Sequence record: NC_041877.1
Source of the DNA: Pseudomonas phage SM1
Strand: one strand, 5' to 3'
Length of the DNA stretch: 64,000 nt
Position numbers and translations under genes: made by a program. The notes beneath the pieces are model-generated. The model made no database searches, had not been told where the DNA came from, and worked only from the letters and a program-made list of their open reading frames with translations. This document shows, one piece after another, positions 1,684-61,736 of the stretch (its first letter is position 1; each line of letters opens with the position of its first letter).

Positions 1684-2961
1684 GTGACAGTAGGTCTTAA
1701 TTTCCTTGCTACCGTTGTGGCCTCCGAGACAGGATCATCCCTAGCTAGGCTGGAGGAGGATTTGTTTGTAGGTGAGCAGGAGCAGGCTGCTTTCGAGTTC
1801 GTGCGCCGCTACTACCGGCAGTACCGGTCCGTCCCTGACGCCAGGACTGTGCAGGAGCATACCGGGGTACGGCTGCCTACTCCTCGGGGGGATGTCGAAT
1901 TCCACCGAAACAATCTGTATGACCGTCGCACGTTTGACGTGATCCGCGATACGTACTCAACCCTACGCGATGCGATAGGTACGCGGCAGCCCGCCCCGGC
2001 TATTCAGGCCCTTGAATCCGGGCTGCGGCGCGTACGTAGCACACAGCGTAATGCTGGACTGGTAGACCTTGCCCAGGGCATGGCGGAGGTCCGCCAGCGC
2101 CTTGTACGGGTGCAAGCCATGGGAGGTATGTCGGGGGTTCCAACACCATGGCCCACTCTGAACGCAGAGACCGCAGGTTACCAAGACTCGGACCTCATCA
2201 CGTTTGTGGGTCGTATGGGTACTGGTAAAACTATGACCCTTCTCTGGCAGGCCAACCACGTCTACGAGGAAGGCTACTCCGCATTGGTAGTTACAACCGA
2301 GATGGGGTCGGAGCAGATAGCTCGCCGATGGATGGCGATGCATTACGGCCTGGATGCCAAGATGCTGAAGTCCGGCATGGTCTCTACTCGACTTCTACGT
2401 CAGATAGAACAGTACGAAGCTGAGTTGCTGGGGCGAGAGCGTTTCCGGATTCTGTCGCTCGGCACCGGGGCGCAGATATCACAGATTGAGGCGGCAGTGG
2501 AGGAGTTAAGTCCTGATATCGTATTCATCGACGGTGCTTATTTGCTCAAACCGAGTAAGCAGAGCCGACCGCTCAACCGTAATGAAACAGCCGCTTATGT
2601 GTTTGATGAGATAAAGCAGCTAACCATCGACACTAACCGCCCTTGGGTAGTCAATACCCAGTTCAACCGCGCAGCGGGCAAGGGCGGTAAGGATGGCACC
2701 CTGGAGTCCATCGCTATGTCCGATGTGATTGGTTATCACAGCTCGATTGTAGTAGCAGTAAAGCACGGACCCACGGAGAACCCGTATGAGTCTCGTGAGC
2801 TTGATATTCTCAAAGGACGGGAAGGGGAATTCGGGTCATTCTTTACGCACTACCGTTTCAAGCCTGCAAACCTCAACGAGATGACGGCGGAGGAGGTTGA
2901 GGCCGTGTCGGCTGGTCCGGCGGCTGCCGAAGAAGACGATCAAGGATACGCTTGGAGGTAA
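1684..2961 (+). CDS. DnaB-like replicative DNA helicase (RecA-fold ATPase domain)
   Basis: GTG start 7 nt after GGAGG; Walker A FVGRMGTGKT; the segment LVVTTEMGSEQIARRWMAMHYGLD resembles the DnaB H1a/H2 region (SLEM..EQI..R). Confidence 0.65.
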   Translation: MTVGLNFLATVVASETGSSLARLEEDLFVGEQEQAAFEFVRRYYRQYRSVPDARTVQEHTGVRLPTPRGDVEFHRNNLYDRRTFDVIRDTYSTLRDAIGTRQPAPAIQALESGLRRVRSTQRNAGLVDLAQGMAEVRQRLVRVQAMGGMSGVPTPWPTLNAETAGYQDSDLITFVGRMGTGKTMTLLWQANHVYEEGYSALVVTTEMGSEQIARRWMAMHYGLDAKMLKSGMVSTRLLRQIEQYEAELLGRERFRILSLGTGAQISQIEAAVEELSPDIVFIDGAYLLKPSKQSRPLNRNETAAYVFDEIKQLTIDTNRPWVVNTQFNRAAGKGGKDGTLESIAMSDVIGYHSSIVVAVKHGPTENPYESRELDILKGREGEFGSFFTHYRFKPANLNEMTAEEVEAVSAGPAAAEEDDQGYAWR

Positions 2962-2963
2962 TT

Positions 2964-5870
2964 ATGGCATTTGATGAAACACTATGTGATGGCTGCCCGA
3001 TCCAGGGCGAGTTCACACCGTACCGTGGCGTAGACGGGAACGAGGATGCCCCCTACCTGATAGTTACAGATTTGCCTAGCCAAGCTGGCGCGAGAAAAGG
3101 CCGCATGCTTCCCGCCAATCAGGGCAAATTGCTCGCTAAGTGCCTGAAGGATGAAGAGTTCGATACAGCGGATTTCCGCCTAGTTCCTATGTGCCGTTGC
3201 CCGTACAACAAGGATTCCTACAAGACTGCTTTCAAGAAGCAGATTAACCGCCACTGCCGGCGGCACCTAGAAGATTATATCGACGAGACCAAGCCGGCTG
3301 CGATTATCACGCTGGGGGCAGATGCCACCGGTCAGGTGATGAACAAGAACGTCAAGATCACCAAGGTACGCGGCCTAGCGCATCACTCTGAGGAGTTTGG
3401 GGTACCGGTATTCCCGATGCAGTCTATCGCCGTAGCGGTTAACTATCCTCAGAACGAGCCGTTGCTAGCCGCAGACTGCGCGAGTTTTGGCCGTCTTGTA
3501 GATGCCGATCTAGATATCGATACCGCTGACGCCTTCACCACCGGGGAATACACGCTGGTAAAAGACCTGCAATTCCTCATCGATATGGACCCTGAGATTC
3601 TGTCGTTCGATACTGAGACTACTGGATTGCGTTGGTACCAACGTGGCGTCGATGTACGGAGCTACCGTAAGCACCTTCATGAGGGCAAAGCTTGGTTTCA
3701 GCCGCGTTTCCAGATACTCACTATGCAGTTTACCGTCGAAGCTGGCAAATCCTACGTACTGGCCTGGGACCACCCGGAAGACCCAATACCGGAGGAGGAT
3801 AAACCTCGCCTGCGTAATCAGCTCCGCCAGTTGTTATGTGCGCCTAATCGGATAGTGGTAGGCCAGCGTCTCAAGTTCGATAACGTAGCTTTGTGGATGA
3901 CCGAGGGCATTCGCTTCCGCATCGGCGGCGATACTTCGATGATGGCTGCTATCGTGGACGAAAACCTACCCGAGAAAAACTTGGACGTATTGACCAAGCT
4001 GTTCGTGAAGGATATGGCCGGGTACGCGGATCGGTTCAATCAAATCGTGCAGAAAGATCGGATGTGGGAGACCACCTTGGATAGTCTTGTCCCCTACGGC
4101 GGTGGGGATACCGATGCGGTTTTTCGTCTATACCATATTTTGGAGGACAAGATCGCGAGCGACGAGGGGCTCTGGACTCACTACACCCAGGTCTCCATCC
4201 CTGGCCTGAATGCCATGGCTCGCATCGAAACCCATGGTATGTATGTGGACATGGAGGAGGCGATGCCGCAGTTCCAGGCCTACATGGAGGAGGAAGTTGA
4301 GAGGCAGCGGCTTAGCTTGCTTTCGCAGCTTGACCGTGGCTTGAAGCGGGATGTGGTAAGGGACTTTTTGAGCAAATCCCAGAATAAAAATAAGTCCGCG
4401 GAGGAGGCGCTGTCTTTCGGGCGAACTGATTTCCTGAAGGAGATTCTGTTCTATCACCCGAAAGGGTTCCGGCTCAAACCGGTAGTCTTTACAAAGACTA
4501 CTGACAAGCTGGAGGACCCGAACCTAAAAGAACCAAGCACCAGTTCGAAAGACCATCTTCCGTTCTTCTTCGACACATGCCCGTTCACGCTGGAGTTGGC
4601 CCAGTATGTGAAGGATAAACGGATGTTGGAGACGAACATCCTGGGTTTCCAAGAAAAGTTCGTCGTAGACGGTATGGTGCGCCCTACCTACTATCTGGAT
4701 GTCACGGTGACCCGACGTACGGCATCTCGCGACCCCAACGGGCAGAACTTCCCGAAGCGCGGCAAGAAAGCCAAGATGTACCAGAAATCCTTTGTGGCGC
4801 CGAGGGGGTGGGTCATCATCTCTTGCGACTTGTCGCAGGCTGAGCTGCGTATTGCGGGGGACATGGCTCGTGACCCAGAGATCATCCGTATCTACAACGA
4901 GAATGGGGACATTCACATAACCACGGCATGTATCGTGGCCCGCATTAGCGAGGAGGAATTCCATAGACTGCCCGAGGAGCAGAAGAAGGACCTACGTACT
5001 AAAGCGAAAGCGGTGAACTTCGGTTTCCTCTATGGCATGTCTTGGCGGAAGTTCATCATTTACGCCAAAACCCAGTACGGCGCGGTATTCACTGAGCAGC
5101 AGGCGAAGCGTATTCGTACGGATTATTTCCGCCGCTACAAGAATCTGGAGGTATGGCACAAGAGAGTACGGCAGATTGTACAAGAGCGGGGATGGATTCG
5201 GTCTTACTCAGGTCTTATCCGCCATCTCCCTACCGTGTGGAGCCATGAGGAGTACATCCAGGCAGAAGCTATTCGCCAGGGCATTAACAGCCCTGTGCAG
5301 GAGTTTGGCTCGACCCTCGGGGTTATGGCCCTGGGTCGCATGGACGAGGAGTTGGACCCAGAGTACATCAAGCTCATTGGTTTTGTGCATGACGCGATTT
5401 ATGCCTATGTCAGGGAGGAGCATGTTGACTGGGGCTTGAAGACCTTGAAGCGCTACATGGAGACCAACCCGCTGGAGGAAACTTTCAATTTGCGCATGCG
5501 TATCCCGATTGTTGCGGATGCTTCCTTCGGCTGGAATCAGGGCGAAATGTTCGAGTTGAGTAATTTCCGTCTCGACGAGCCTTATGACTTCTCGACAATC
5601 CAAGACAAGGAAGGTAGGCAGCTGTTCGAACTTCCAGAGCAGGTCGCTCCCGCTAATGATGGTTACTTGGTCGGTTCACCGTACACGGAGCCTGATGAGT
5701 TTGAGGATGAGAATGTGGTCTCCATCGCTCGCGTCCGCCGGATACGCGGAGCCAGTGTGAGTAGCACAAAGAAACAGGGCCACCGGAAAGGTCAAGCGCC
5801 GGTCAAAGTGCGTTTCGCGGAAGATAGCGAGACAGCACCAGCAACCTCGCGCATCCGTAGGAGCAGGTAA
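2964..5870 (+). CDS. family-A DNA polymerase with 3'-5' exonuclease domain and an N-terminal family-4 uracil-DNA-glycosylase-like domain
   Basis: RBS GGAGGTAATT then ATG; Exo I motif LSFDTETTGL; Pol A motif A ISCDLSQAELRIAGD, motif B KAVNFGFLYGMS, motif C FVHDAIYAY; first ~180 aa align to the family-4 UDG pattern (GNEDAPYLIVTDLPSQ.. G.ML.AN.GKLL .. C.CPYNK .. ITLGADA .. RG..H). Confidence 0.85.
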   Translation: MAFDETLCDGCPIQGEFTPYRGVDGNEDAPYLIVTDLPSQAGARKGRMLPANQGKLLAKCLKDEEFDTADFRLVPMCRCPYNKDSYKTAFKKQINRHCRRHLEDYIDETKPAAIITLGADATGQVMNKNVKITKVRGLAHHSEEFGVPVFPMQSIAVAVNYPQNEPLLAADCASFGRLVDADLDIDTADAFTTGEYTLVKDLQFLIDMDPEILSFDTETTGLRWYQRGVDVRSYRKHLHEGKAWFQPRFQILTMQFTVEAGKSYVLAWDHPEDPIPEEDKPRLRNQLRQLLCAPNRIVVGQRLKFDNVALWMTEGIRFRIGGDTSMMAAIVDENLPEKNLDVLTKLFVKDMAGYADRFNQIVQKDRMWETTLDSLVPYGGGDTDAVFRLYHILEDKIASDEGLWTHYTQVSIPGLNAMARIETHGMYVDMEEAMPQFQAYMEEEVERQRLSLLSQLDRGLKRDVVRDFLSKSQNKNKSAEEALSFGRTDFLKEILFYHPKGFRLKPVVFTKTTDKLEDPNLKEPSTSSKDHLPFFFDTCPFTLELAQYVKDKRMLETNILGFQEKFVVDGMVRPTYYLDVTVTRRTASRDPNGQNFPKRGKKAKMYQKSFVAPRGWVIISCDLSQAELRIAGDMARDPEIIRIYNENGDIHITTACIVARISEEEFHRLPEEQKKDLRTKAKAVNFGFLYGMSWRKFIIYAKTQYGAVFTEQQAKRIRTDYFRRYKNLEVWHKRVRQIVQERGWIRSYSGLIRHLPTVWSHEEYIQAEAIRQGINSPVQEFGSTLGVMALGRMDEELDPEYIKLIGFVHDAIYAYVREEHVDWGLKTLKRYMETNPLEETFNLRMRIPIVADASFGWNQGEMFELSNFRLDEPYDFSTIQDKEGRQLFELPEQVAPANDGYLVGSPYTEPDEFEDENVVSIARVRRIRGASVSSTKKQGHRKGQAPVKVRFAEDSETAPATSRIRRSR

Positions 5871-15010: not shown

Positions 15011-16360
15011 ATGGAAGACACCATGGCACAGACCAAGCCCAAGACCGCCCCGGTCGTGGAACAGGCGGAACAAGAAATCGTAATCGGCAGCCGAGTCAAG
15101 TTCCTCGGCTACGACGAGCAGACCAAGGAAGAGGATCGTATCCTCGAAGACGGCGGCATCTACCTCGTGGTCGGCTTCGAGCCGGAGCAGGAAGGTGACG
15201 ACGATGAAACCCTGCCGGTCCTTCAGGCGCCGAACCCGGGCTTCAATCCGAAGAAGAAGAAGCACCCGGAAACCAACCCGGAATTCCTCGAAGTCGTCTG
15301 CTTCCCCGAGGAAGTAGAGCTTTCTGACGAGGCCGACGAGGCCGAGGAAGAAGCCGAGGAAGAAGAAGTCGAAGAGCAGCCGGAAAAACCGGCGCGCGGC
15401 GCCAAGGGTAAGGCCGCCGACAAGGGCAAAGCTGCCGACAAGGGCAAGGCGCCGGCCAAGGGCAAGGCTGCCGAAAAAGCGCCGGCCAAGGGCAAAGCAG
15501 TGGCCAAGCAGGTCGAAGAAGAGCCGGAAGACGCGGGCGACCCGGTACTGGCCGACGTTCCCGATCTGGAGCAGGAAGACCCGTCCGTTCTCGATCTGGT
15601 AAACGACAACGACGATCTGATCGCTGCCGTCCAGACCATGGAAAACGAGATCGCCACCACCGAGTTCCAGATCGGCGGCATGCTGTACCACATCAAGCGC
15701 GAAGTGCCCTGGCGTGACATGGACCCTGCCTACGCAGAGCAGGGCGGTTGGGGCAAGTTCGTCGAGGCCTACTTCAACCTCGGCGCGCGTAAAGCCACCC
15801 AACTGATCGCGATCTACGTTCAGTTCAACCAGGCCGGCATCGCCAACCCGTCGGAAGTCGTATCGACCCTCGGCTGGTCCAAGGCGGCCAAGCTGTGTGG
15901 CTACCTCAACGAGGAAGGCGTCGATGCCGGCGAACTGATCGAACTCGCAGGCGAGACCGCCACCAACGACCTGTCCACGGTCCTCAAGGAGACCTACCGC
16001 GAAGGCGGCACCGGCGGCACCCCGGGCGAGAAGAAGGTGCGGGTTAAGGTGAACCTGTCCTTCGAGCAGGAGAAGGGCGAGCTGGTTCAGGACATCATCT
16101 CGGAAGCCGTCTCCACCTTCGGCGCGGCCACCGAAGAAGAAGCTCTGTTCCAAGTTCTCGTCGAGTGGCGCGCCAGTAACACCGCCGGCGGCGCGGCTGT
16201 CGATGCCAAAGAGAGCGGCAAAGAGGTGGCAGAAAAAGCGGTAGCGGACGCCAAGGCCAAGCGCGCCGGCGCCAAGCCCGCTTCGAAGCCCGCCGCCAAA
16301 CCGGCAGCCAAGCCAGCGACCAAACCGGCGACCAAGCCGGCCAGCCGTGGCCGTAAATAA
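15011..16360 (+). CDS. hypothetical protein with acidic N-terminal region, KGKA repeats and C-terminal KPA repeats (histone-H1/AlgP-like low complexity)
   Basis: GKAADKGKAADKGKAPAKGKAAEKAPAKGKAVAK and AKPASKPAAKPAAKPATKPATKPAS; followed by a strong intrinsic terminator. Confidence 0.55.
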   Translation: MEDTMAQTKPKTAPVVEQAEQEIVIGSRVKFLGYDEQTKEEDRILEDGGIYLVVGFEPEQEGDDDETLPVLQAPNPGFNPKKKKHPETNPEFLEVVCFPEEVELSDEADEAEEEAEEEEVEEQPEKPARGAKGKAADKGKAADKGKAPAKGKAAEKAPAKGKAVAKQVEEEPEDAGDPVLADVPDLEQEDPSVLDLVNDNDDLIAAVQTMENEIATTEFQIGGMLYHIKREVPWRDMDPAYAEQGGWGKFVEAYFNLGARKATQLIAIYVQFNQAGIANPSEVVSTLGWSKAAKLCGYLNEEGVDAGELIELAGETATNDLSTVLKETYREGGTGGTPGEKKVRVKVNLSFEQEKGELVQDIISEAVSTFGAATEEEALFQVLVEWRASNTAGGAAVDAKESGKEVAEKAVADAKAKRAGAKPASKPAAKPAAKPATKPATKPASRGRK

Positions 16361-16386
16361 CGCCCGGCGCATCCTGTAACCCCGAA

Positions 16387-16420
16387 GGGGCTCTCCATAG
16401 CGGGGAGCCCCTTTTTCTTT
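16387..16420 (+). terminator. rho-independent terminator
   Basis: GGGGCTCTCC-ATAGC-GGGGAGCCCC 10-bp stem followed by TTTTTCTTT. Confidence 0.7.
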
Positions 16421-16433
16421 GAGGAGAGAAAAC

Positions 16434-17144
16434 ATGGCTCTACAACGTAGCCGGCGCTCGGCGTCTTCGTCCAAAACCAACGCGAAGCCCCGACGTGCGG
16501 CTGAGCCCGTACGGATCAAAATCGACTATATCCCTATCGAGGAGATTGTCCCCTACGAGTTCAACGCCCGTAACAATGAGCAGGCCATCGAAGCGGTCAA
16601 AAAGTCTATTCAGCAATTTGGCTTTCTGAACCCGATTGTCCTCGACGAGAACAACGTGCTGGTCGCGGGCCATACGCGAACGGAAGCGGCCAAGCAACTA
16701 GGCTATATCGAGCTTCCGTTCGTAAGCGCAGCCCACCTTACTCCGGAGCAAGTACAGGCCTTCCGCCTCGTAGACAACAAAGTAGCTGAGATTGCTACAT
16801 GGGATGACGCACTCTTGGCGCAGGAAATGTATGCGATCAAGGAGATGTTTGATTTCACTGATTTCGGTTGGGACGCGGCAGAGATCGATTGCCTGGGCCA
16901 GCTTGTTTCTGACGATTGCCTACTCACTGCTGGTCTAGCTACGCCGGAGGAGGATGAAGAAGGTAGCGCCCGCCTTCCTGTGCGGCGTTCCCCGGCAACT
17001 GCGCGTATTGTGATCGGAGAGTTCGTCTTTTTCCGTCCGGCATCCTCAGTTCGCAATTTCCTCGACGGTCTGCGGCGTGCCCACAACGCCGACAGTGCGG
17101 CGATGGAAGAGGATATCGCTAACCGGCTTGGGCTACTGGATTAA
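16434..17144 (+). CDS. ParB-like nuclease-domain protein
   Basis: RBS GAGGAGAGAAAAC then ATG; IEEIVPYEFNARNN...NPIVLDENNVLVAGHTRTEAAKQLGY matches the ParB N-terminal (ParB/Srx) domain. Confidence 0.65.
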   Translation: MALQRSRRSASSSKTNAKPRRAAEPVRIKIDYIPIEEIVPYEFNARNNEQAIEAVKKSIQQFGFLNPIVLDENNVLVAGHTRTEAAKQLGYIELPFVSAAHLTPEQVQAFRLVDNKVAEIATWDDALLAQEMYAIKEMFDFTDFGWDAAEIDCLGQLVSDDCLLTAGLATPEEDEEGSARLPVRRSPATARIVIGEFVFFRPASSVRNFLDGLRRAHNADSAAMEEDIANRLGLLD

Positions 17145-17154
17145 GGAGCACCAA

Positions 17155-18711
17155 ATGGCACTTCGTCAGCGCCGCACCAGGGTGAGTGCAGCCGATAAAC
17201 TTACCTCGATTACTGTCGTCAATGTACCTACGGAGAACCACTCGCCCGACATCAAGAACCCGCGAAAGGCGGACCCTGCGCGTCTGGGCCTGCTTCGGTT
17301 GTCTATCGTCAAATTAGGGTTCCTGATGCCGATATTCGCGCGAGAACAGGACGGAACTTTGTTGTCTGGGCACCAGCGACAAAGGGTATGCCTGGAGGCG
17401 GGAATCCCCACCATGCCGACCGTGTACGTATCGCTCACGGAGCAGGAGATGATGGGTATCAACATACTCTTCAACCGCGTCACCAACGACTTCAGTGCTT
17501 TCGACACAGGCAGCACCGGAGTGGCCCGGATCAACATGAAACAAACACTGGAAGCGCTGGAGTCTTTGCCCGACTGTGACTTCAGTAACTTCTATGCAAA
17601 CGCTTGCAAAAACGAACCGATCAAAGTATTCGCGGCGGGTTGCGTAGACCAGTACGATAAAAAGGCCATTGTCACCGCCGGGGCGTTCGTTCGAATGGGG
17701 GTCAAAATCCCACTCGTAGTCAGTGAGTCTGGGGAGGTAGTAAATGGGGTCCACCGCCTATTCGCCGCTATTGAGAAGGGTTTGGATCAGTGGCCTGTAG
17801 TCCGTATCCCGGATCGCATCGCCGAGGTCGCTAAGATTGTTCTCAACTACCTGAGCATGGACTTCCACATCGACGAGGACTTCAAGGACCTTCTCCGTGG
17901 TGGTGCCTTCCGGCGAGTTTCAAATAACCGAGGTTTGGTGCCGAAGAGTTTTCGTTTCTGGGCCAATGGCGAACGATCTCTACTTGACAGGGATAGCTAC
18001 AGCACGGAGTTTTGGCTACGTTTCCGTGAGATACATGGTAACTCCATTCTCGATTTCGGAGCTGGGCTTTGCCGTGTAGCCCCCTACCTGCGGACCAAGG
18101 GATTCGAGGCAATGGATTTCGAGCCCTATCGCGTCGATCCCGTACTTAACGAAGCAGAGCCTAGCCCCGACTATAGCCGGTCCATGGCGAAGCAATTCCT
18201 GTCCGCTATCGCTGATCCTAGGCACAAATTCGATTCTATTTTTATGTCGGCAGTGATGAATTCGATTCCTTTCCCGGAGGATCGATTGAAGGTATTGGTT
18301 ATTGTGCATGCACTCTGTCGGCTGGATACTTCGGTTTACGGAACGTGCCGAGATATTTCCGATTTCTCCTACGAGTATGGCGGGGTAAGGAACGGTAACT
18401 ACTTCGTGATGGACGGAGAGCCGGGCATACGGTTGGGTGACATCAACTCTAGGCCTAAAATTCAGAAATTCATGACGCAGGACGAAGCTCGTAGCTACTT
18501 TGACCGCTTCTGGAACAAAGTCGAATTTTGGGAGGGTGGCAACGTTTTCTTCTTCCGTTTGTCTGCTCCCAAAGCACCGAATCTGAAAGCTCTGGGCCAG
18601 AGTTTGGATTTCGAATTTGGCGATCTGCCTTTTCTTGACGGCTCGCGTATGGGTTTAGCTAAAGAGGCTCGTGCGGCTTTCGCAAAGCGATTGGGGCGGG
18701 CGATTCCCTAG
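17155..18711 (+). CDS. ParB-like domain(s) fused to a class-I SAM-dependent methyltransferase domain
   Basis: AGGAG RBS then ATG 17155; ParB-like segments LSGHQRQRVCLEAGIPTMPTVYV and VVNGVHRLFAAIEKGLDQWPVV; MTase motif I ILDFGAGLCRVAPYL; no DPPY/NPPY motif seen. Confidence 0.6.
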   Translation: MALRQRRTRVSAADKLTSITVVNVPTENHSPDIKNPRKADPARLGLLRLSIVKLGFLMPIFAREQDGTLLSGHQRQRVCLEAGIPTMPTVYVSLTEQEMMGINILFNRVTNDFSAFDTGSTGVARINMKQTLEALESLPDCDFSNFYANACKNEPIKVFAAGCVDQYDKKAIVTAGAFVRMGVKIPLVVSESGEVVNGVHRLFAAIEKGLDQWPVVRIPDRIAEVAKIVLNYLSMDFHIDEDFKDLLRGGAFRRVSNNRGLVPKSFRFWANGERSLLDRDSYSTEFWLRFREIHGNSILDFGAGLCRVAPYLRTKGFEAMDFEPYRVDPVLNEAEPSPDYSRSMAKQFLSAIADPRHKFDSIFMSAVMNSIPFPEDRLKVLVIVHALCRLDTSVYGTCRDISDFSYEYGGVRNGNYFVMDGEPGIRLGDINSRPKIQKFMTQDEARSYFDRFWNKVEFWEGGNVFFFRLSAPKAPNLKALGQSLDFEFGDLPFLDGSRMGLAKEARAAFAKRLGRAIP

Positions 18712-18777
18712 CCACTGTAGCTAAGGCGTAGAGACAAGCTGTATAGTGCAAGCGTTTGCATTCAAGGAGCGGCGATC

Positions 18778-19515
18778 ATGCTGACAAGAAAAGATGACAG
18801 GCCGGTGCATATGCCGGCCAACCCAGCTAAGTTTGAATTCGATGCCGAGGTGGCTGCTATTTTTCCGGACATGGCGTGCCGGTCCATACCGGATTTCCTG
18901 CGGGCTCACGACCTCCATGCGGAGTTATGCAGAGAGTTGTTCGAAGTTGGCCGTAACTCCGTAGCTGACCTGGGCGCCAGTCGCGGCCACTTCCTCGGGG
19001 CATTAAGTAGACGCTACGGTAAAGAGTTCCATGCTTACGCCTGCGACTATTCACTGCCAATGGTTGAGCATCTGCGCAAGGATTTTCCCTGGGCGGATGT
19101 GGAGCTGGTTGATCTGACCGCGCCCACTTTCTTCCATGATCGTCGTACGTATGACGTAGTTAATCTGTCGTACGTATTGCAATTCATCACTCCTGCAATG
19201 CAGCGCAGAGTGCTCGCCAAGGTGGTAGAAATGGTTAGGCCGGGTGGGTTGCTATTTATCGGGTCGAAATACGAGGTGCTTGGACAAGTAGGGGAAATGC
19301 TCCATCGTCAGTACATAGAGTGGAGAATGGAGCGTGGCTACTCTCGTGAGGAGATTGAAGCCAAGACCAAGGCACTAGCCGGAAGTATGTGGCCGCGCAC
19401 GCGTAATGCACTCCTCATCGACTTGAAGGATTTCGGTATGGAGAATATCTCTGATACTACCTACAACATGGTGTTCGGCAATATCGTGTGTCGTAAAGGC
19501 GGAGAACGAGAATGA
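18778..19515 (+). CDS. CmoA-like (carboxy-SAM synthase family) SAM-binding methyltransferase-fold protein
   Basis: N-terminus FDAEVAAIFPDMACRSIPDFL parallels CmoA [20 protein letters not shown]; motif I VADLGASRGHF; motif II-like YDVVNLSYVLQFI. Confidence 0.55.
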   Translation: MLTRKDDRPVHMPANPAKFEFDAEVAAIFPDMACRSIPDFLRAHDLHAELCRELFEVGRNSVADLGASRGHFLGALSRRYGKEFHAYACDYSLPMVEHLRKDFPWADVELVDLTAPTFFHDRRTYDVVNLSYVLQFITPAMQRRVLAKVVEMVRPGGLLFIGSKYEVLGQVGEMLHRQYIEWRMERGYSREEIEAKTKALAGSMWPRTRNALLIDLKDFGMENISDTTYNMVFGNIVCRKGGERE

Positions 19516-20354
19516 CAGATCGGACCGAAGATGGGCGTCGCCCAGTTGCGCGCCGCAATTTGCGCCGGGTGCGGGGTGGGGCACGCTTCGCCTCCAACTC
19601 TGGCAGTAGTAACTTGCGAACTCCACGAGATTTCGATGAGCAGGAGCACGATGACGTAGATGACGCCATTGATCCCCTCGCCGTACATCGCGGTGTAGTA
19701 TCCCGTGCTCGTGCAGATGATGCCGAGCCTGGGACGGATGTCTCTCCGGCTCAGCGGATGTTTGATGTGCAGCGAAATGCCCCAGCCAGTGTTTCACGGG
19801 AATACCGCCTGAATCTAGTTGGCCGGTTGTTGATGCGCAAGATTCCATTGGATCGGATCGCCCAACAACTGAACGTGTCTGTATCGACGGTAGAGAAAGA
19901 TAGGGCGGCCTGGAAAAAGATGCTAGCTGAACGGGCCCGCCAATTCGATGTGAACGAGTACATCGGCATTCAGTCGGAGTTCTACGACGAGGTGAGCGGT
20001 CAGGCAATGCAGATCGCCTCTATGGCAGCGGGTGAGAATGCCGTACCTACGGCCATGCGTTTGGCTGCGATGCGGACTGCGCTGGCTGGCCAAGCCGACA
20101 AGACTCGTACACTACAGTCTGCCGGCGTATTTGAGGCCGCGCGCTTCCGCCGAACTACGGACGGCTCTGCCATGAGCGATGTACAGATGCTTATGGCTCG
20201 GACTATGGAAGCTCTGGAAGACCTGATGCAGGCTGACGAGCCTCCACCTCCGCCGCCGCGCGGTGGGCCCCCGACAACCCGCCGACGTGACGGAAGCGGT
20301 TTCGACGATCTGACGTTGGATGACCCGGAGGAAGGGGAGGTTATGGAGCTATGA
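19512..20354 (+). CDS. putative terminase small subunit (HTH-containing); alternatively a sigma-region-4-like regulator
   Basis: Lies immediately upstream of and overlaps (ATGA) the large terminase; HTH-like LDRIAQQLNVSVSTVEKDRAAWKKM. Confidence 0.35.
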   Translation: MTDRTEDGRRPVARRNLRRVRGGARFASNSGSSNLRTPRDFDEQEHDDVDDAIDPLAVHRGVVSRARADDAEPGTDVSPAQRMFDVQRNAPASVSREYRLNLVGRLLMRKIPLDRIAQQLNVSVSTVEKDRAAWKKMLAERARQFDVNEYIGIQSEFYDEVSGQAMQIASMAAGENAVPTAMRLAAMRTALAGQADKTRTLQSAGVFEAARFRRTTDGSAMSDVQMLMARTMEALEDLMQADEPPPPPPRGGPPTTRRRDGSGFDDLTLDDPEEGEVMEL

Positions 20355-22282
20355 ACGTGAGTCCCATGAAGAAAACACGCCGTGTTCAAGCTTTTCTGCG
20401 CACCATAGAAAGCGTGTCGAAGGATATCGATAATGCGTTTTTTGGCCTGCTCTACCGTACGGCCATGGAGCGCATGGTCGATGGGGAGGCTACGCTGTTC
20501 GAGTTCCTTGGGCAGCTAGAGCATATGCCTGTGAGCATTGAAACCTTCCTCGACAGCGCGGAGTTCTTGGGCGCTACTGACTTGGTGATGTGGCCCGAGG
20601 TTCGAAAGGCAATCGTCGAGGAAAATCAGAACTGGTGGCGAGGCCTCGATACCGCTCCTGGCGCTCTCGGTGGGGCCTTTGATACGGCCTGCCTGATGGG
20701 TTGTACGCGTTCTGGTAAGTCTACCCAGGCCATCGTGGGGTTCATGTACCAGCTTCACATTCTGTTGTGTATGAAGAACCCGCAAGGCTGGTACGGGCTG
20801 CCCTCCGCTACCTCGATTGTCATGGCGATCATGGGCGCCAAACCTCATGTTACCAAGAAAGTGGTTTACGCGCCGATGAAGAAGTATATCGAGCGTATGC
20901 CATGGTTCCAGAAGTATGGAGTACCGGACAAGAATATCGACAGCGAAATGCTGTTCATCGAAAAGAACATTCGTGTTGTGCCGGTAGCGGGTAATGAAGA
21001 CGCGGTTCTCGGTGAAGCCTTGATCGCGTGTTTGATTGACGAGATCAACTTCATGAACGTGGTGCAGAAGTCCAAAAAGGCAGAAGTATCCACGGGGCGC
21101 TCTGGCGTATACGATCAGGCGCAAACGGTCTACGATACCGTGGTACGTCGTCGGCGTGGTACTTTCCCTAAACGGTACCCCCAGATCGGCATCATCTACG
21201 CCAGTTCGTCTACCCGGTACAAAGGTGATTTCACTGATAAGCTGAAGGCGGAGACCGAGAAGTTCAACCATAACAACGTCTACATTTTCAACAAGAAGCA
21301 GTACGAAGTTCAGCCCAAAGAAAACTTCTGCGGAGAGACGTTCCGTCTACTGATCGGCAATGATGTACAGCACGATACTCGTGTTCTAGGGCCGGACGAG
21401 GCGGTGCCGGAGGGGTCCTGGGTAGAGCTGGTGCCTATCGAATATTTGCCGGACTTCCAGCGTAAGCCCTATGACGCCATGCGAGACGTTCTTGGTATAT
21501 CCTCGAACGCGATCAGCCCGTTCATCAAAATGCGCTACCGGGTCTACGAGTGCGTTGAACTCGGCCACGAGAAGCGGTTGGAGTCGTTCCTTGAGAAAGA
21601 TCACGTCATTCTTGGCGTTGACGGTATGCCAAAAGTTCGACATGGGCACGTATGCACCAACCCGAGCAAGCCTCGGTACGTCCATATCGACCTGTCACGT
21701 ACTGGAGACCGCTGCGGTGTAGCGATGGTTCGCTTCGACGGGATGAGTAACTTTGAGCGGGCCGGGGACCAGTCAGAGCGGTTGCCGTTGGCTACGGTGG
21801 AGATGGCACTTTCCATCGAGCCAGATGCGAATAACGAGATTCAGATTGCAGAGGTGCGGTCCTGGGTTCGATCCCTTATTAAAGTGCATGGCTACCCGAT
21901 TAAAGGCGTTTCGTACGACGGCTTTGATAGCCGCGAGTCCATCCAGCAATGGCGTAAGGACCGCATGCCGTCCAAGGAGGTTTCGGTGGATCGTACCAGC
22001 GCGCCGTACAAGCAATTCCGCGATGCACTCTACGACAGGCGTGTAGCCCTTCTCGATGATCCCATCTTGCTGAATGAAATATTGGAGTTGGAGTACGACA
22101 CGCATAAGGACAAGATAGATCACCCGATGATGGGTAGTAAGGACGTATCCGATGCTGTATGCGGCGCGTATTGTAATATGCTGGAACGCCGAAGCACTTG
22201 GGCTGCCGTTCACGAGATCGATGGCGGTGATATGGCCGGCAGGTTCGAAGGCGAACGTTTTGACGATGATCGACGTTTTTAA
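20351..22282 (+). CDS. terminase large subunit
   Basis: 643 aa; Walker A GCTRSGKST; Walker B-like LIACLIDEINFM; C-terminal acidic nuclease-like region. Confidence 0.7.
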   Translation: MNVSPMKKTRRVQAFLRTIESVSKDIDNAFFGLLYRTAMERMVDGEATLFEFLGQLEHMPVSIETFLDSAEFLGATDLVMWPEVRKAIVEENQNWWRGLDTAPGALGGAFDTACLMGCTRSGKSTQAIVGFMYQLHILLCMKNPQGWYGLPSATSIVMAIMGAKPHVTKKVVYAPMKKYIERMPWFQKYGVPDKNIDSEMLFIEKNIRVVPVAGNEDAVLGEALIACLIDEINFMNVVQKSKKAEVSTGRSGVYDQAQTVYDTVVRRRRGTFPKRYPQIGIIYASSSTRYKGDFTDKLKAETEKFNHNNVYIFNKKQYEVQPKENFCGETFRLLIGNDVQHDTRVLGPDEAVPEGSWVELVPIEYLPDFQRKPYDAMRDVLGISSNAISPFIKMRYRVYECVELGHEKRLESFLEKDHVILGVDGMPKVRHGHVCTNPSKPRYVHIDLSRTGDRCGVAMVRFDGMSNFERAGDQSERLPLATVEMALSIEPDANNEIQIAEVRSWVRSLIKVHGYPIKGVSYDGFDSRESIQQWRKDRMPSKEVSVDRTSAPYKQFRDALYDRRVALLDDPILLNEILELEYDTHKDKIDHPMMGSKDVSDAVCGAYCNMLERRSTWAAVHEIDGGDMAGRFEGERFDDDRRF

Positions 22283-22306
22283 TGCAAGCGTTTGCACGGA
22301 GATACT

Positions 22307-22867
22307 ATGACCATTCTTTCCTATACCCGTCTTTGCGAAGTAGTGGACCGGGGCTATCTTAGTGGCCTTGAGGATCGGAGCCAGATAAACGCTGCAAGCA
22401 TAGACGTTCGTCTGGGTTGCACCTTTCTAGTAGAAGACGCACCTTTCGACGAGGACTATTTCACAGAACCTCCTTTGCTGAATGTAGATTTGGCGGCCAG
22501 GGAATCTGTGTGTTTCAGGGAACATAAGGGACGGATCAGGCTGGAGCCAATGGAATTTGTACTGGCCCATACTGTGGAGCAGTTTAACCTCCCGGACTGG
22601 TTATCCTGTGAATTCTCATTGAAGTCCTCCATCGCCAGGAATGGCTTGGAGCACCTCAACGCGTGTTGGGTGGATGCCGGGTTCAGTAGCTCGGTACTCA
22701 CCCTTGAACTGAAGAACATGACCCGTCATCATGCGCTGGTGCTAAGGCCCGGTATGCTGATCGGGCAGCTCAAGTTCTTCGAGCATGAACCGGTGCCGGA
22801 AGAGCAGAGCTATCGCAATCGCGGTCGCTACAACGGTGATGCTTCGGTGAGCACTATCAAACCGTGA
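22307..22867 (+). CDS. dcd: dCTP deaminase family protein (dUTPase superfamily)
   Basis: SIDVRLG, RSSIARNGLEHL...DAGFSSSVLTLELKN, LRPGMLIGQL align along the length of bacterial dCTP deaminase. Confidence 0.75.
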   Translation: MTILSYTRLCEVVDRGYLSGLEDRSQINAASIDVRLGCTFLVEDAPFDEDYFTEPPLLNVDLAARESVCFREHKGRIRLEPMEFVLAHTVEQFNLPDWLSCEFSLKSSIARNGLEHLNACWVDAGFSSSVLTLELKNMTRHHALVLRPGMLIGQLKFFEHEPVPEEQSYRNRGRYNGDASVSTIKP

Positions 22868-22882
22868 GCAAAGGAGTAACAC

Positions 22883-23698
22883 ATGGCTAAAGGTGAACAG
22901 GGCAAAGCTCGAAACGGTAGCCGTAAAAATCGCCGCGATGACGATGTGATGCGGGATGACTTCGAGGCCAGAATGGAGGGGCCCGTAAAGAAGTCTTGGA
23001 CATTGCATGATCTGGTACCGCTGGAGCCGGGTTCGGATAACCAGCGTGCGGCTATCGAGGCCTACTGCCAAGGTGACCATCTCGCCATGCTCGGCTCTGC
23101 CGGGGCGGGCAAGACTACCTTAGCGTGCTATCTGGCAGCAGGGTCTTTAGTGAGGAATGAGGTTGAGAAAATCATCCTTGTTCGTTCTGCCGTAGAGCAG
23201 CGAGAGCAGGGCTTCGTACCCGGTACCCAAGAAGAGAAAGATGCCAAATTCGAAGAGCCGTATGTCTCGGCCTTCGGCCACATCTTTGGCCACCCCACCA
23301 CTTACCAGTGGATGAAGCGGCGTGGATTGATCGAGTTCCGTACGACTGGCAATCTACGGAGTCTGAATTTCGATAATGCGGTAGTCGTGGGTGATGAAGT
23401 GCAGAATCTCAATTTCGAGGAGTTGCATACTTTCATAACCCGTCTAGGCCCTCGTTCTAGGTTGATCATGTGCGGAGACCAAGCGCAGTGCGACCTGAAG
23501 CGGTTCGAGATCAAAGGGCTGCCGATTTTCGAGGAGCTGGCAGGCGACTTGCCAAACCTCACAGTTGTGAAGTTCAGCAGACATGACTGCCTTCGTCATG
23601 GATTTGTCCGCGCATGGCTCGGTGCCGTCGAGGACTGGCACAAGCGTCGGGAGGAAACACGACCCGTAGCCGATATAACCACGAAGGTAGCCGGCTAG
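22883..23698 (+). CDS. PhoH-like P-loop ATPase
   Basis: AAGGAG RBS; Walker A MLGSAGAGKTTLA, Walker B VVVGDEVQNL, and GDQAQCDL (PhoH signature GD.xQ.D). Confidence 0.7.
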   Translation: MAKGEQGKARNGSRKNRRDDDVMRDDFEARMEGPVKKSWTLHDLVPLEPGSDNQRAAIEAYCQGDHLAMLGSAGAGKTTLACYLAAGSLVRNEVEKIILVRSAVEQREQGFVPGTQEEKDAKFEEPYVSAFGHIFGHPTTYQWMKRRGLIEFRTTGNLRSLNFDNAVVVGDEVQNLNFEELHTFITRLGPRSRLIMCGDQAQCDLKRFEIKGLPIFEELAGDLPNLTVVKFSRHDCLRHGFVRAWLGAVEDWHKRREETRPVADITTKVAG

Positions 23699-24767: not shown

Positions 24768-24839
24768 GGGGTGGTAGCTCAGGGGTAGAGCGAGCGTTTT
24801 CTAAACGCTTGGGCGTGGGTTCGAATCCCACTCACTCCA
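24768..24839 (+). tRNA. tRNA-Arg (anticodon TCT)
   Basis: Manual cloverleaf: acceptor GGGGTGG/TCACTCC, D arm GCTC-AGGGGTA-GAGC, anticodon arm AGCGT-TTTCTAA-ACGCT, T arm GTGGG-TTCGAAT-CCCAC, discriminator A; CCA not encoded. Confidence 0.8.
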
Positions 24840-24907
24840 TCTAGAAGTTTAGATGCCACGGAAGGCGTCTACCTAGAATTGCTGTAATCCCTTCAAAGGG
24901 GAAACGT

Positions 24908-24942
24908 GGCGGACGGGGGTTCGATTCCCCCCAGCTCCACCA
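24908..24942 (+). ncRNA. tmRNA (ssrA) 3'-end-like segment: T arm, acceptor 3' strand and encoded CCA
   Basis: GGCGGACGGGGGTTCGATTCCCCCCAGCTCCACCA closely resembles the 3' end of proteobacterial tmRNA (…GGACGCGGGTTCAACTCCCGCCAGCTCCACCA); no canonical tRNA 5' half could be paired upstream. Confidence 0.4.
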
Positions 24943-25266
24943 AAGACATTCTCGGCCAGCACGTTCGTTCCTAGGTGTGAGAAGGTGGCTGCGATACTGC
25001 CGGGTGGTTGCTAGGAACATCATTCGGAAAGTCCAGCTAGAGAGTGTCTCTGATGGGGCTGTTCAGGATTCGACGCCGCGCGTACTTAGCGAAGGCAGCA
25101 AGGAAAGGCGACGCACCTTGACGCGCGCAAATCGATAAACGCCAACGATACTTCGTTCGACGTTCGCCTCGCAGCCTAAACCCCTGCGGAGTGACGGGTA
25201 GCCTCCGGGCTTCCTCCCCCTGCTACGGCTAGTACCCGTAGTTGCCTTGGAACAGAAAGGGGAGGG

Positions 25267-25342
25267 CCTTCGCGTAGGCGCACTGACGGTCGGCACTCCA
25301 CCGCACGCCTGTCAGGGGGCTGTCAGTGCGCCTACGCGAAGG
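25267..25342. repeat. 21-bp perfect inverted repeat (CCTTCGCGTAGGCGCACTGAC / GTCAGTGCGCCTACGCGAAGG) with a 34-nt loop
   Basis: Exact reverse-complement arms at 25267-25287 and 25322-25342. Confidence 0.85.
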
Positions 25343-59761: not shown

Positions 59762-60121
59762 ATGGGCAATGAAACTGCGTCCGTATTTCCTGCGTTGGTG
59801 CAAGAAGTGTTGTCCGGAGACGATCTGGTTTTGTTGGTAGACCTGGGAGTTGATGGCTTGCATAAGCGCGTGCGGGTACGGCTTAAAGATGTGGATGCAC
59901 CCAATGCGATACGGCAGGGTTCGGATACGGAAGCTGGAAAACTGAGGGACCGAGTTGCAAACCTTTGCAACCACTCGAAGGTTACGGCCACTGTAGTCAA
60001 GAAAACTGCACATGCTTGGGTAGTGATCCTCAACCTTGAAACTTCTGACGGGCAGAACATCGACCTGAATGAAATGCTCAAGAGCGAAGGCTACGTCTAC
60101 CGGGGGCTACGAAATGAGTGA
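59762..60121 (+). CDS. hypothetical protein
   Basis: RBS GGGAGAAACGAT then ATG. Confidence 0.4.
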   Translation: MGNETASVFPALVQEVLSGDDLVLLVDLGVDGLHKRVRVRLKDVDAPNAIRQGSDTEAGKLRDRVANLCNHSKVTATVVKKTAHAWVVILNLETSDGQNIDLNEMLKSEGYVYRGLRNE

Positions 60122-61736
60122 AACAACCCAACGAGTTCCGCGCCGTCGCCGGGCCTCCGCGATCACTGCGCGTTCGACCGTAATTCAGGTCAAACGTGCA
60201 GACGCTGATACCTCGCGACAAGTGGATTTTCTAGAGGACTGGACCGGCATTGATTCTGCCGGCGGGATTATTCTGCTTCCGCCGTACGACCCGGGTCGTC
60301 TTTTCGAGATCATCGAAACCTCTAACGCCTTGCGGCCCTGCATCGACGCCTACGTGACAAACGTAGTCAAGCCGGGGTGGGAAGTAGGGCCGATTCGTCG
60401 TGGCGCCAAGATCAATGCTGGCGAGGCTGACGAGCTTCAGTCTTTTATCGAGTACGCAAACAGCGACCAGAACCTGGAAGCGGTCTTGGATGCGGCTGTG
60501 CGTGACCGGGAATCAGTAGGCTACGGATTCGTAGAGGCTATTCGCGACCTATCCAACAATCTCAGTCTTTTCCGCCATGCGCCTGCGCTGCATACGCGCC
60601 TTGGGGTCAAGCACCCGCAGGAGGTTGAGGTTCGCTACACGATAGCCCGTGGTCGTCGAGTTACGACCGTTACCGAATTCCGCCGTTTTCGCAAATTCGT
60701 TCAACGAGTGAACGCAAGGACCGTGTGGTTCAAAGAGTTTGGCGACCCGCGCCGCATGAACCGCAATACTGGTCTCTTCGAGGGCGAAGACGGCTATACC
60801 CCCGGAGCCGATGCCACTGAAATTCTGCACCTGAAACTGCCGTCCAACGAGCCTTACGGAGTGCCGCGCTGGATTAACCAGCTTCCCTCGATCATCGGCA
60901 GCCGCGAGGCTGAAGAAGTAAACATGCGCTATTTTCAGGAAAACACGGTGCCCCCGATGATGCTGACGGTTTCGGGTGGCCGGCTTACTGCCTCGTCGTT
61001 CAAGAACCTGACCAACATGTTCACGCAGAACACCGGCCAGGAGCGCCAGAACCGCATCATGATCGTGGAAGCGGTAGGTGAAGGAGACAGTCTGGATAAC
61101 AAAGGCTCTACTATCCAGATGAAGGTCGAGAAACTTACCGATGCCCGCCAGTCGGACGCGTTGTTCAAGGACTATGACGCAGCCAACATGGCTAAAGTAC
61201 GGTCTTCCTGGCGCCTAGGTGCGGTGCTTGTCGGTATGGGTAATGAGACCAACTACGCTAACGCGCAAGTGGCAATTGCGCTGGCTGAAGCCCAGGTATT
61301 CGGGCCCGAACGAAGTGACATGGATGAGCTTCTGAATAAGTTGGTTGTCAACGGTTATCGAGGTCTGGCCCTGAAGACCTGCAAGTTGGTATCTCGCGTT
61401 CCGCCGATCAGCAGTCCGGAAATGGTCATCAAGGCGTTGACCGCACTGAACGTGATGGGTGGCGTAACTCCGCGTAGCGCTATCGATGCGGCAAATACCT
61501 TCTTGCAAACCGAGCTGCCGCAATATCCGGAGAAAGGGGAGGCCGGCTATGAACCCTGGATGGACCAACCTATGGCGAGGTCCATCAAAAACAGCGGCGG
61601 GGAGTCCACTACTGGCAAGCTCCCGACAACTCATGCCGGCCAGAGTCTCAAAGATGACGCTACCAAGTCATTGGAGCAAGATGGCGATATCGAGTTCCGG
61701 GCCCCGGAGCATGGTAGGGAGGGTGAAAGCCTATGA
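60114..61736 (+). CDS. putative portal protein
   Basis: 540 aa; first gene of a head-morphogenesis-like block ending in an HK97-like capsid gene; no motif-level support. Confidence 0.4.
   Translation: MSETTQRVPRRRRASAITARSTVIQVKRADADTSRQVDFLEDWTGIDSAGGIILLPPYDPGRLFEIIETSNALRPCIDAYVTNVVKPGWEVGPIRRGAKINAGEADELQSFIEYANSDQNLEAVLDAAVRDRESVGYGFVEAIRDLSNNLSLFRHAPALHTRLGVKHPQEVEVRYTIARGRRVTTVTEFRRFRKFVQRVNARTVWFKEFGDPRRMNRNTGLFEGEDGYTPGADATEILHLKLPSNEPYGVPRWINQLPSIIGSREAEEVNMRYFQENTVPPMMLTVSGGRLTASSFKNLTNMFTQNTGQERQNRIMIVEAVGEGDSLDNKGSTIQMKVEKLTDARQSDALFKDYDAANMAKVRSSWRLGAVLVGMGNETNYANAQVAIALAEAQVFGPERSDMDELLNKLVVNGYRGLALKTCKLVSRVPPISSPEMVIKALTALNVMGGVTPRSAIDAANTFLQTELPQYPEKGEAGYEPWMDQPMARSIKNSGGESTTGKLPTTHAGQSLKDDATKSLEQDGDIEFRAPEHGREGESL

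Follow-up and report, generated by a model that had tools for sequence, protein, structure and literature searches.

A ParB, ParB–methyltransferase and CmoA-family gene module ahead of the terminase genes of Pseudomonas phage SM1: a candidate carboxy-SAM-dependent DNA modification system

A three-gene module upstream of the packaging genes

We analyzed a 64,000-nucleotide stretch of Pseudomonas phage SM1 (NC_041877.1; the whole stretch is referred to as the window), focusing on three consecutive genes, designated g1, g2, and g3, which encode a stand-alone ParB/Srx-like protein, a fusion of two ParB/Srx-like domains with a class I methyltransferase-fold domain, and a CmoA-family protein, respectively. 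CmoA is the synthase of carboxy-S-adenosylmethionine (carboxy-SAM), and, judging from the sequences and gene neighborhoods described below, g2 would most likely be a carboxy-SAM-dependent transferase of a new, non-homologous kind, with phage DNA as its substrate. The region at positions 16000-20400 was 100% identical to that of Pseudomonas phage PA_L9 (Samunavirus) and 99-99.8% identical to those of UF_RH6, FBPa45, PaMx31, and the BHU phages, all of which are ~94-kb siphophages of the genus Samunavirus. The open reading frames (ORFs) of g1, g2, and g3 are all on the plus strand and coincide with annotated coding sequences of the identical phages, in whose deposited records the products are called hypothetical proteins, "DNA replication protein" or, wrongly, tail proteins. 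Each gene is preceded by a good ribosome-binding site, as exemplified by GAGGAG 5' of 16434 and AAGGAG 5' of 18778, and a g2 start inside the 17077 ORF was rejected in favor of the true start at 17155, which yields a protein of 518 amino acids.

The genes are closely spaced, with 10 bases between g1 and g2 and 66 bases between g2 and g3, and the stop codon of g3 overlaps the start of the putative small terminase gene (19512). The terminase genes are translationally coupled to g3, and this arrangement was syntenic across all clade-1 loci. The strong terminator-like hairpin that closes the gene upstream of g1 (Table 1), the short gaps, and the overlap between g3 and TerS therefore make g1-g3 the first genes of a unit that reaches into the packaging genes. 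An earlier note, made from the letters of this DNA alone, had placed three consecutive genes just ahead of the packaging genes, and the ORFs, the matches to annotated coding sequences, and the g3/TerS overlap all agree with it. A single functional module, co-expressed with the terminase genes, is the best explanation of this arrangement.

g3 as a member of the CmoA family

Carboxy-SAM-dependent DNA modification in nature was shown in December 2025, solely for cytosine C5 via CmoX (PMC12783734). In Synechococcus phage S-B43, carboxy-SAM is produced by the phage CmoA (SpCmoA), and 5-carboxymethylcytosine is formed by CmoX, which is homologous to C5-cytosine methylases and has both an SPPC motif and the carboxylate-binding Arg350. 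Glycine is attached by the Asn-synthetase-like ligase CmoY (Yang et al., Nat Commun 2025, PMC12783734); in the carboxy-SAM assay with S-adenosylmethionine (SAM) and prephenate, the product was detected at m/z 443.0 (PMC12783734). The remark of the earlier note that CmoA is unusual in a phage is thus outdated, as 83 deposited phage records carry a CmoA homologue and 4,257 phage CmoA genes were counted in that study (PMC12783734).

The profile, sequence, and fold searches assigned g3 to the CmoA family and not to the generic methyltransferases, and by its sequence and predicted structure g3 is a member of this family. The N-terminal parallel to CmoA noticed previously (FDxxVAxxFPDMxxRSxP) is real, and the similarity runs over the full length: TIGR00740 (CmoA) matched g3 with an E-value of 5.7e-26 and 91.7 bits over profile positions 13-239 of 239. 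This score is below the curated NCBIfam equivalog cut-off of 193.3 bits (TIGR00740 / NF011995), as are those of the other phage CmoAs, with 115.6 bits for SpCmoA (scored via the S-B05 copy, which is 100% identical to that of S-B43), 120.8 bits for HJ05, 105.4 bits for Evaa, and 89.5 bits for TurkishDelight. Since the validated SpCmoA also falls short of it, the cut-off marks bacterial orthologues, not activity. In a phmmer search of the PDB, g3 matched 1IM8 (2e-16), 4GEK (1e-15), and 4IWN (6e-15), the next match being at 4e-4. In a Foldseek search with the AlphaFold2 model of g3 (predicted local distance difference test score, pLDDT, of 95), ranks 1-6 were all CmoA/YecO, with template modeling (TM) scores of 0.78-0.86, and the best superpositions were with 4GEK, 1IM8, and 4IWN (TM 0.80-0.86).

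The contacts of E. coli CmoA with SAM are made by Tyr39, Asp62, Gly64, Ser66, Asp89, Asp117, and Asn132 (PMC3663124). g3 is identical to the E. coli enzyme at Asp62, Gly64, Ser66, Asp89, and Asp117, which are mostly kept in SpCmoA (with Glu89 and Asn117) and are kept in the other relatives. At Tyr39, g3 has Phe, and the 58-member g3 family is divided between Tyr (30 members) and Phe (28 members); at Asn132, g3 has Ser and the validated SpCmoA has Leu. The family-specific residues Q136, F137, K165, K198, and L202 are kept in both g3 and SpCmoA and mostly kept in the other relatives, Met being present at position 136 in L058 and L115.

The ParB/Srx domains of g1 and g2

The prediction that g1 is a stand-alone ParB/Srx-like protein was supported by its matches to ParB_N (PF02195; E-value of 9.7e-6 and 26.0 bits, just under the cut-off of 26.3) and phrog_620 (1e-52). 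g1 also matched the N-terminal part of phrog_498 "DNA methyltransferase" (1e-39) and the N-terminal region of the PADLOC MTase_II model (1e-25). For g2, the match to ParB_N was above the same cut-off at 27.6 bits, and PDB sequence matches, obtained with both the single sequence and the family profile, were to ParB, Spo0J, and Noc only. The earlier note had left open whether g2 carries one or two ParB-like domains ahead of its methyltransferase, and two can now be delineated. Domain 1 has the motifs NPR, SGHQR, and NRxTND, which are invariant across clades, and domain 2 (approximately residues 140-240) has the motifs NGVHR and NYLSMDF; the two were aligned by hhalign with a probability of 89.8% and an E-value of 1.8e-6, and the AlphaFold2 model of g2 (pLDDT 85) has two ParB-type units ahead of a Rossmann fold.

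ParB domains of the type of g1 and g2 are also found at the N-terminus of fusions with phage DNA N6/N4 methyltransferases (phrog_498; PADLOC PDLC03229), which are likewise phage-borne and often near packaging genes. The catalytic domain of phrog_498-type fusions is an N6_N4-type DNA methyltransferase with a DPPY motif. The catalytic domain of g2, in contrast, has no detectable relationship to theirs, and g2 differs also in being genetically tied to CmoA. Furthermore, ParB (PF02195) genes are frequent neighbors of CmoA-CmoX, with 1,660 ParBc found on contigs of 5,615 CmoX candidates (PMC12783734), and g1-like ParB genes adjoin CmoX in L120 and L125 as well.

The position of the module raises the alternative of an accessory for packaging or partition, in which the ParB-like proteins would act at the packaging site or as nucleases together with terminase and the methyltransferase folds would be regulatory or vestigial. 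It is in line with this that the module lies directly upstream of TerS and TerL in Samunavirus-like phages, HJ05, Evaa, and clade 2. However, g2 and g3 both have invariant SAM-binding motifs, and DNA modification is already established for the CmoA-CmoX modules that include ParB genes, among which that of Streptomyces phage TurkishDelight is also located at a genome end. We therefore consider a packaging or partition role very improbable.

The catalytic domain of g2

g2 matched phrog_5475, a family of unknown function, over profile positions 1-457 of 458 (E-value of 2.3e-184), and its C-terminal Rossmann domain, a very divergent class I methyltransferase, had a weak match to Methyltransf_23 (24.5 bits, residues 294-379). 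A large protein collection contained 631 relatives of g2. When the methyltransferase domain by itself was used as the query of an exhaustive search, 235 clusters at 50% identity were obtained, nearly all of ~500 amino acids with the domain at the C-terminus; the catalytic domain of g2 is therefore found almost only in the ParB fusion. No solved methyltransferase relative of g2 was detectable by sequence in the PDB, the family profile included.

The absence of DPPY/NPPY from g2, pointed out previously, was borne out in that there is no literal motif of this kind, the position of motif IV in the loop after beta4 being occupied by an invariant N-S-[IV]-P-F (18259-18273), which in full reads N-S-[IV]-P-F-x-x-D-R. 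This stretch recalls S-P-P-F of N4-cytosine enzymes and N-[IL]-P-Y of KsgA/Erm. By our own reading, however, the generic Methyltransf_11/23 families have a similar "..h.pd" stretch at this position, and a degenerate (D/N/S)PP(Y/F) motif is for this reason kept only as a lead. An assignment of g2 to the classical DNA amino-methyltransferases (N6-adenine or N4-cytosine) was rejected, being supported neither by sequence nor by fold. Nor was any match to PF00145, SPPC catalytic cysteine motif, or Arg350 found in g2. As g2 has no relationship to the C5-cytosine methylases, it would probably modify a different atom from CmoX, and perhaps a different base. In addition, a CmoX or CmoY hidden elsewhere in the phage was ruled out by tblastn with three CmoX and two Asn-synthetase-like ligases against the whole 94-kb PA_L9 genome and the window, in which the best E-values were 0.25 and 0.06.

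The bacterial pathway for the modification of tRNA with uridine 5-oxyacetic acid (cmo5U) in E. coli and P. aeruginosa also consists of a synthase, CmoA, of which g3 is a full-length homologue in structure and sequence, followed by an adjacently encoded carboxy-SAM-selective class I transferase, CmoB. The module could accordingly be imagined to be directed to RNA, with g2 as a CmoB analogue that uses carboxy-SAM from g3 to mark tRNA or rRNA with carymethyl groups of the cmo5U or another type. g2 carries ParB domains, though, and is not a homologue of CmoB; a relationship was rejected since the alignment by hhalign with E. coli CmoB covers only the 20-column glycine-rich motif I. Moreover, the sole tRNA of the phage, Arg(TCT), is not among the tRNAs of P. 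aeruginosa with cmo5U or its methyl ester (mcmo5U), the cmo5U family being those for Ala, Ser, Pro, Thr, Leu, and Val, and CmoA and CmoB are already encoded by the host. DNA is favored as the acceptor because the three ParB domains are of the type associated with DNA methylases and the characterized phage CmoA system modifies DNA. By this analogy, DNA is likely to be the acceptor of g2, and the RNA-directed alternative appears decidedly improbable. Of the proposal in the earlier note, in which SAM or a derivative of it would serve a module for the modification of DNA or tRNA, the DNA part is thus supported and the tRNA part is unlikely.

Carboxylate recognition offers a further point of comparison. 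The carboxylate of carboxy-SAM is bound in CmoB by Lys91/Arg315. The basic residues of g2 that are invariant across clades are R248, R253, R254, R377, K435, and R512, located in the methyltransferase domain and the linker preceding it.

Conserved linkage of g2 to CmoA-like genes

Among cultured phages, full-length g2 relatives were confined to Samunavirus, Aeromonas phage HJ05 (36% identity), and Gordonia phage Evaa (33%), and the gene order in HJ05 and Evaa is a ParB gene, g2, a CmoA-like gene, and terminase. A forward scan of IMG/VR returned 70 loci, 62 of which were evaluable in that they reach at least 1 kb past g2. A CmoA-like ORF was located downstream of g2 on the same strand in 61 of the 62 evaluable loci, with a median gap of 386 nt and a gap of no more than 1 kb in 56 loci. 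The 62nd locus (L047) was rejected as a counter-example, since its contig, which was also recorded as L102, has the CmoA-like gene 7.3 kb downstream, beyond inserted tail-fibre-like genes. The linkage persists at 32-37% identity, and, when five distant g2 representatives were inspected singly, a CmoA-like gene was present in L127 and L128. The module reading of the earlier note was hence strengthened by the conservation of the g1-g2-g3 triad across very distant phages, together with the CmoA-family membership of g3 and the precedent of CmoA-CmoX-CmoY (PMC12783734).

The reverse scan, which started from the g3 family, indicated that CmoA-like genes adjoin either g2 or a C5-cytosine methyltransferase homologue and never both, and that the C5-cytosine methyltransferases concerned all have SPPC and G-R-x-V-P-P, the signature of CmoX Arg350. 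In the loci scanned, the CmoA-like gene was never alone, always being accompanied by g2 or CmoX. Some g2 lineages also have amide ligases within or close to the module, which would be expected if the product bore a carboxyl group: Amidoligase_2 (PF12224) and gamma-glutamylcyclotransferase-like GGACT (PF06094) genes are inside the module in L074/L078 (8645-10032), and Asn_synthase-like (PF00733) genes are 3-4 kb upstream in L101 and L107. Taken together, the strict linkage, the mutually exclusive partners, the shared ParB genes, and the ligases are patterns that argue for g2 occupying the functional slot of CmoX.

The same linkage bears on the idea that g3 serves mainly for counter-defense, by draining SAM or by making carboxy-SAM as an inhibitor of SAM-dependent host defenses, with g1 and g2 being independent of it. 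This possibility was raised for phage CmoA (PMC12783734), and the presence of CmoA and prephenate in the host agrees with it. It leaves unexplained, however, both the constant g2 or CmoX partner of the CmoA-like gene and the translational coupling in a late, terminase-linked operon, and we regard it as improbable.

Several variations on the module were observed. L127 (2120-3100) encodes a C5-cytosine methylase that has SPPC but the ordinary G-N-S-V-P-P (Asn) instead of G-R-x-V-P-P of CmoX, and SPPC alone is therefore no marker of CmoX; this methylase adjoins three ParB genes, a split g2, and the CmoA-like gene, L127 being the only locus with g2 and a C5-cytosine methyltransferase. In L126 (6001-8676), an 891-amino acid g2 homologue (protein P0341) has an intein-like LAGLIDADG_3 insertion. 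A protein of 140-174 amino acids without a Pfam match, HAD-like by eye (motif LLDLNYT) and annotated as "phosphatase" in Evaa, is always encoded between g2 and the CmoA-like gene in clade 2 and Evaa. In L013, L035, L043, and L044, variable genes are inserted between g2 and the CmoA-like gene, and these look ThyX-, DHFR-, HNH-, and RNase H-like by eye from their motifs. L107 also carries S-adenosylmethionine decarboxylase (PF02675). The genes of the other clades for the HAD-like protein, Amidoligase_2, GGACT, and S-adenosylmethionine decarboxylase were not found in the Samunavirus genome.

Proposed function of the module

In the mechanism that we propose, g3, as a divergent CmoA, would convert SAM and host prephenate to carboxy-SAM or a very close SAM derivative, and the class I domain of g2 would transfer the carboxymethyl group from this cofactor to replicated DNA of the phage itself before it is packaged. 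The enzyme would be brought to DNA or held there by both ParB/Srx domains of g2 as well as by the separate g1. DNA modified in this manner would withstand host restriction or other DNA-targeting defenses. We infer the cofactor of g3, its use by g2, DNA as the acceptor, and the protective role from the gene content and the precedent of S-B43, and the complete scheme, from carboxy-SAM synthesis by g3 to transfer of the group onto phage DNA by g2, is offered tentatively, as a possibility that we take seriously while slightly doubting it as a whole.

By analogy, the best explanation of the module is that it is a functional analogue of the CmoA-CmoX(-CmoY) system of S-B43. Both have a phage CmoA homologue adjoining a methyltransferase-fold enzyme in one operon-like cluster, ParB (PF02195) genes are common nearby, amide ligases are optional, and the g3 and SpCmoA families alike have K198 and K/R200 and lack Arg199. 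They differ in that CmoX is a C5-cytosine methylase, whereas in g2 tandem ParB domains are fused to a Methyltransf_11/23-like domain, in that there is a CmoY ligase in S-B43 and none in the SM1-type phage, and in that SpCmoA keeps Glu164, where g3 has Ser.

Several observations weigh against the proposed function. Literature searches on Samunavirus, PaMx31, and SM1 gave no report of modified or restriction-resistant DNA (the "SM1" of the AXL3 paper was set aside as a different phage). P. aeruginosa makes its own carboxy-SAM, so that the need for a phage copy of CmoA is an assumption about flux. The catalytic domain of g2 is similar to methyltransferases of small molecules, peptides, and tRNA and not to those of DNA. 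In the DNA retrieved, no CmoA-like gene was present in L126 (6 kb on each side) or in the near-identical short contigs L129/L130, these CmoA-less cases having little flanking DNA. When CmoA-linked and apparently CmoA-less g2 relatives were compared, no residue separating them emerged; the CmoA-less relatives retain almost all g2 invariants, and therefore no residue that discriminates cofactor use was derived.

Two residues of g3 are also among these points. In E. coli CmoA, Arg199 forms a salt bridge to the carboxylate of the cofactor, and Glu164 is highly conserved, with Asp as the sole alternative (PMC3663124). Both are replaced in g3, which has Thr at Arg199 followed by Lys200 (a K-T-K triplet at 19363-19371, corresponding to K198-R199-S200 in E. 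coli) and Ser at Glu164, and the 58-member g3 family has Gln (25 members), His (22), Ala (5), and Glu (4) at position 164. A check of the CmoA residues, as had been recommended for g3, was consequently favorable for the SAM contacts and unfavorable for Arg199 and Glu164. The loss of Arg199 was rejected as a disqualifier, because the validated SpCmoA has Glu199 (and Lys200), and Arg199 is therefore dispensable in phage CmoAs; TurkishDelight and Evaa have Ala199 and Arg200. SpCmoA, however, retains Glu164 while lacking Arg199, and Glu164 is also kept in HJ05, Evaa, and clades 2 and 3 (Asp in L058). The change at Glu164 in g3 is thus a real caveat.

A last point of this kind comes from the fold search, in which CysG and BelI (PDB 9FCL, 9FCE) ranked next after CmoA as the second-best structural matches of g3 (TM ~0.72-0.86). 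We take both to be enzymes of the CmoA fold that perform ordinary methyl transfer. Their identity to g3 is 17-19%, compared with 25-26% for CmoA, and, unlike g3, they are not phage-encoded and have no linkage to ParB or transferase partners.

These findings lead to the main rival explanation, namely two ordinary SAM-dependent methyltransferases: g2 would be a ParB-tethered DNA methyltransferase from an unusual lineage with plain SAM as its cofactor, and g3, having lost carboxy-SAM synthase chemistry, would methylate something else or the target of g2. The replacements at Arg199 and Glu164, with Gln or His at the latter position in the clade, would be accounted for in this way, as would the rank of the presumed plain methyltransferases CysG and BelI just under CmoA and the standard motif I and II residues of g2, which has no demonstrable carboxylate-binding residue. 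What this explanation does not account for is the strict g2-CmoA linkage across lineages at 32-37% identity, the pairing of CmoA with either g2 or Arg350-type CmoX but never both, and the amide ligases in some g2 modules; in addition, the validated SpCmoA is also without Arg199, and CmoA is the best match of g3 by every method. Accordingly, we judge two ordinary methyltransferases to be unlikely.

If the proposed carboxymethyl transfer to DNA is taken further, g2 might represent a second, independent natural class of carboxy-SAM DNA transferases that produces an undescribed mark, for example N6-carboxymethyl-adenine or N4-carboxymethyl-cytosine, which would be converted to an amide in the lineages with Amidoligase_2 or Asn-synthetase-like genes; in this specific form, the idea is speculative and somewhat unlikely. 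An ammonia amide on N6-carboxymethyl-adenine would be the same as the Mom-type carbamoylmethyl-adenine of phage Mu, but its route of formation would be another. In a more radical variant, the g3 clade that lacks Glu164 and Arg199 would make a SAM derivative other than carboxy-SAM.

Phage modules that combine carboxy-SAM and ParB genes were, as a kind, already described in late 2025. The new element is the partner, as g2 belongs to a different, uncharacterized family that is not reported in the survey of PMC12783734, and the preliminary search by its authors found no candidates for N6-adenine or N4-cytosine carboxymethyltransferases associated with CmoA. The present locus therefore offers a candidate for a CmoA-linked DNA carboxymethyltransferase other than CmoX, a type not found in that study. 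Since cultured phages of P. aeruginosa (PA_L9, PaMx31, UF_RH6, FBPa45, and the BHU phages), Aeromonas, and Gordonia carry members of the g2 family, the idea is directly testable. If true, it would provide a second, unrelated route to a type of DNA modification first described in 2025, and would add a new chemistry of DNA together with a new enzyme scaffold by which carboxyl handles could be attached to it. The behavior of these phages toward host restriction systems would become easier to explain, and the ParB-plus-methyltransferase genes that frequently adjoin terminases would acquire a function.

Features of the locus and other observations in the window

The coordinates of the module, its flanking features, and the additional genes of related modules are listed in Table 1.

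Table 1. Features of the module and of related loci (window positions for SM1; positions after an L number are those of that locus)
Feature	Positions	Strand	Evidence or remark
Intrinsic-terminator-like hairpin	16384..16414	+	13-bp stem, 8 G-C pairs, T tract; closes upstream gene
g1, stand-alone ParB/Srx-like protein, 236 aa	16434..17144	+	ParB_N, phrog_620, phrog_498
g2, 518-aa fusion, candidate carboxy-SAM-dependent transferase	17155..18711	+	phrog_5475
g2 ParB/Srx domain 1	17209..17496	+	ParB_N 27.6 bits; PDB ParB/Noc/Spo0J matches
g2 ParB/Srx-like domain 2, degenerate duplicate	17569..17871	+	hhalign; secondary structure of AlphaFold2 model
g2 class I (Rossmann) methyltransferase-fold domain	17872..18708	+	motif I DFGAG 18052-18066; NSIPFPEDR 18259-18285
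g3, CmoA-family protein, putative carboxy-SAM synthase, 245 aa	18778..19515	+	TIGR00740, PDB phmmer, Foldseek
Putative small terminase TerS, helix-turn-helix	19512-20354	+	context gene
Large terminase TerL	20351-22282	+	context gene
Accessory-enzyme genes near g2-CmoA modules	L101 1288-2676; L107 6-794 and 1030-1659		
HAD-like protein	L058 3392-3814; L074 10034-10498; L075 11183-11707 (-); L006 (Evaa gp4) 2633-3115 (-)		

Upstream of g1, a 449-amino acid protein with a Lys/Ala/Glu-rich low-complexity region (15011-16360, plus strand; phrog_17202, weak DUF3102) is encoded; in the Samunavirus-like clade, its gene is always 5' of g1 and behind those of a Cas4-like exonuclease and a RuvC-like resolvase. 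On the other side, the terminase genes (19512-22282) are ~38 kb from a portal-like gene (60069-61736; PF04860, 36 bits, under the cut-off), with dCTP-deaminase-like (22292-22867) and PhoH (22883-23698) genes, a locus for tRNA and transfer-messenger RNA (tmRNA), and dozens of small ORFs in between; by this distance, the packaging genes are thus detached from the remaining morphogenesis module. The 972-amino acid family A DNA polymerase (2952-5870, plus strand) has an N-terminal domain of the uracil-DNA-glycosylase superfamily (PF03167, residues 29-166), which precedes the 3'-5' exonuclease and polymerase domains. At 24768-25270 (plus strand), where deposited annotations give a tRNA alone or nothing, a tmRNA-like gene adjoins tRNA-Arg(TCT). 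It was matched at the Rfam gathering level by both beta_tmRNA (RF01850; 111 bits, E-value of 5e-33, 24828-25219) and tmRNA_permuted (RF04321; 118.6 bits, 24880-25179), and ARAGORN reported a permuted tmRNA with the tag peptide ANDTSFDVRLAA.

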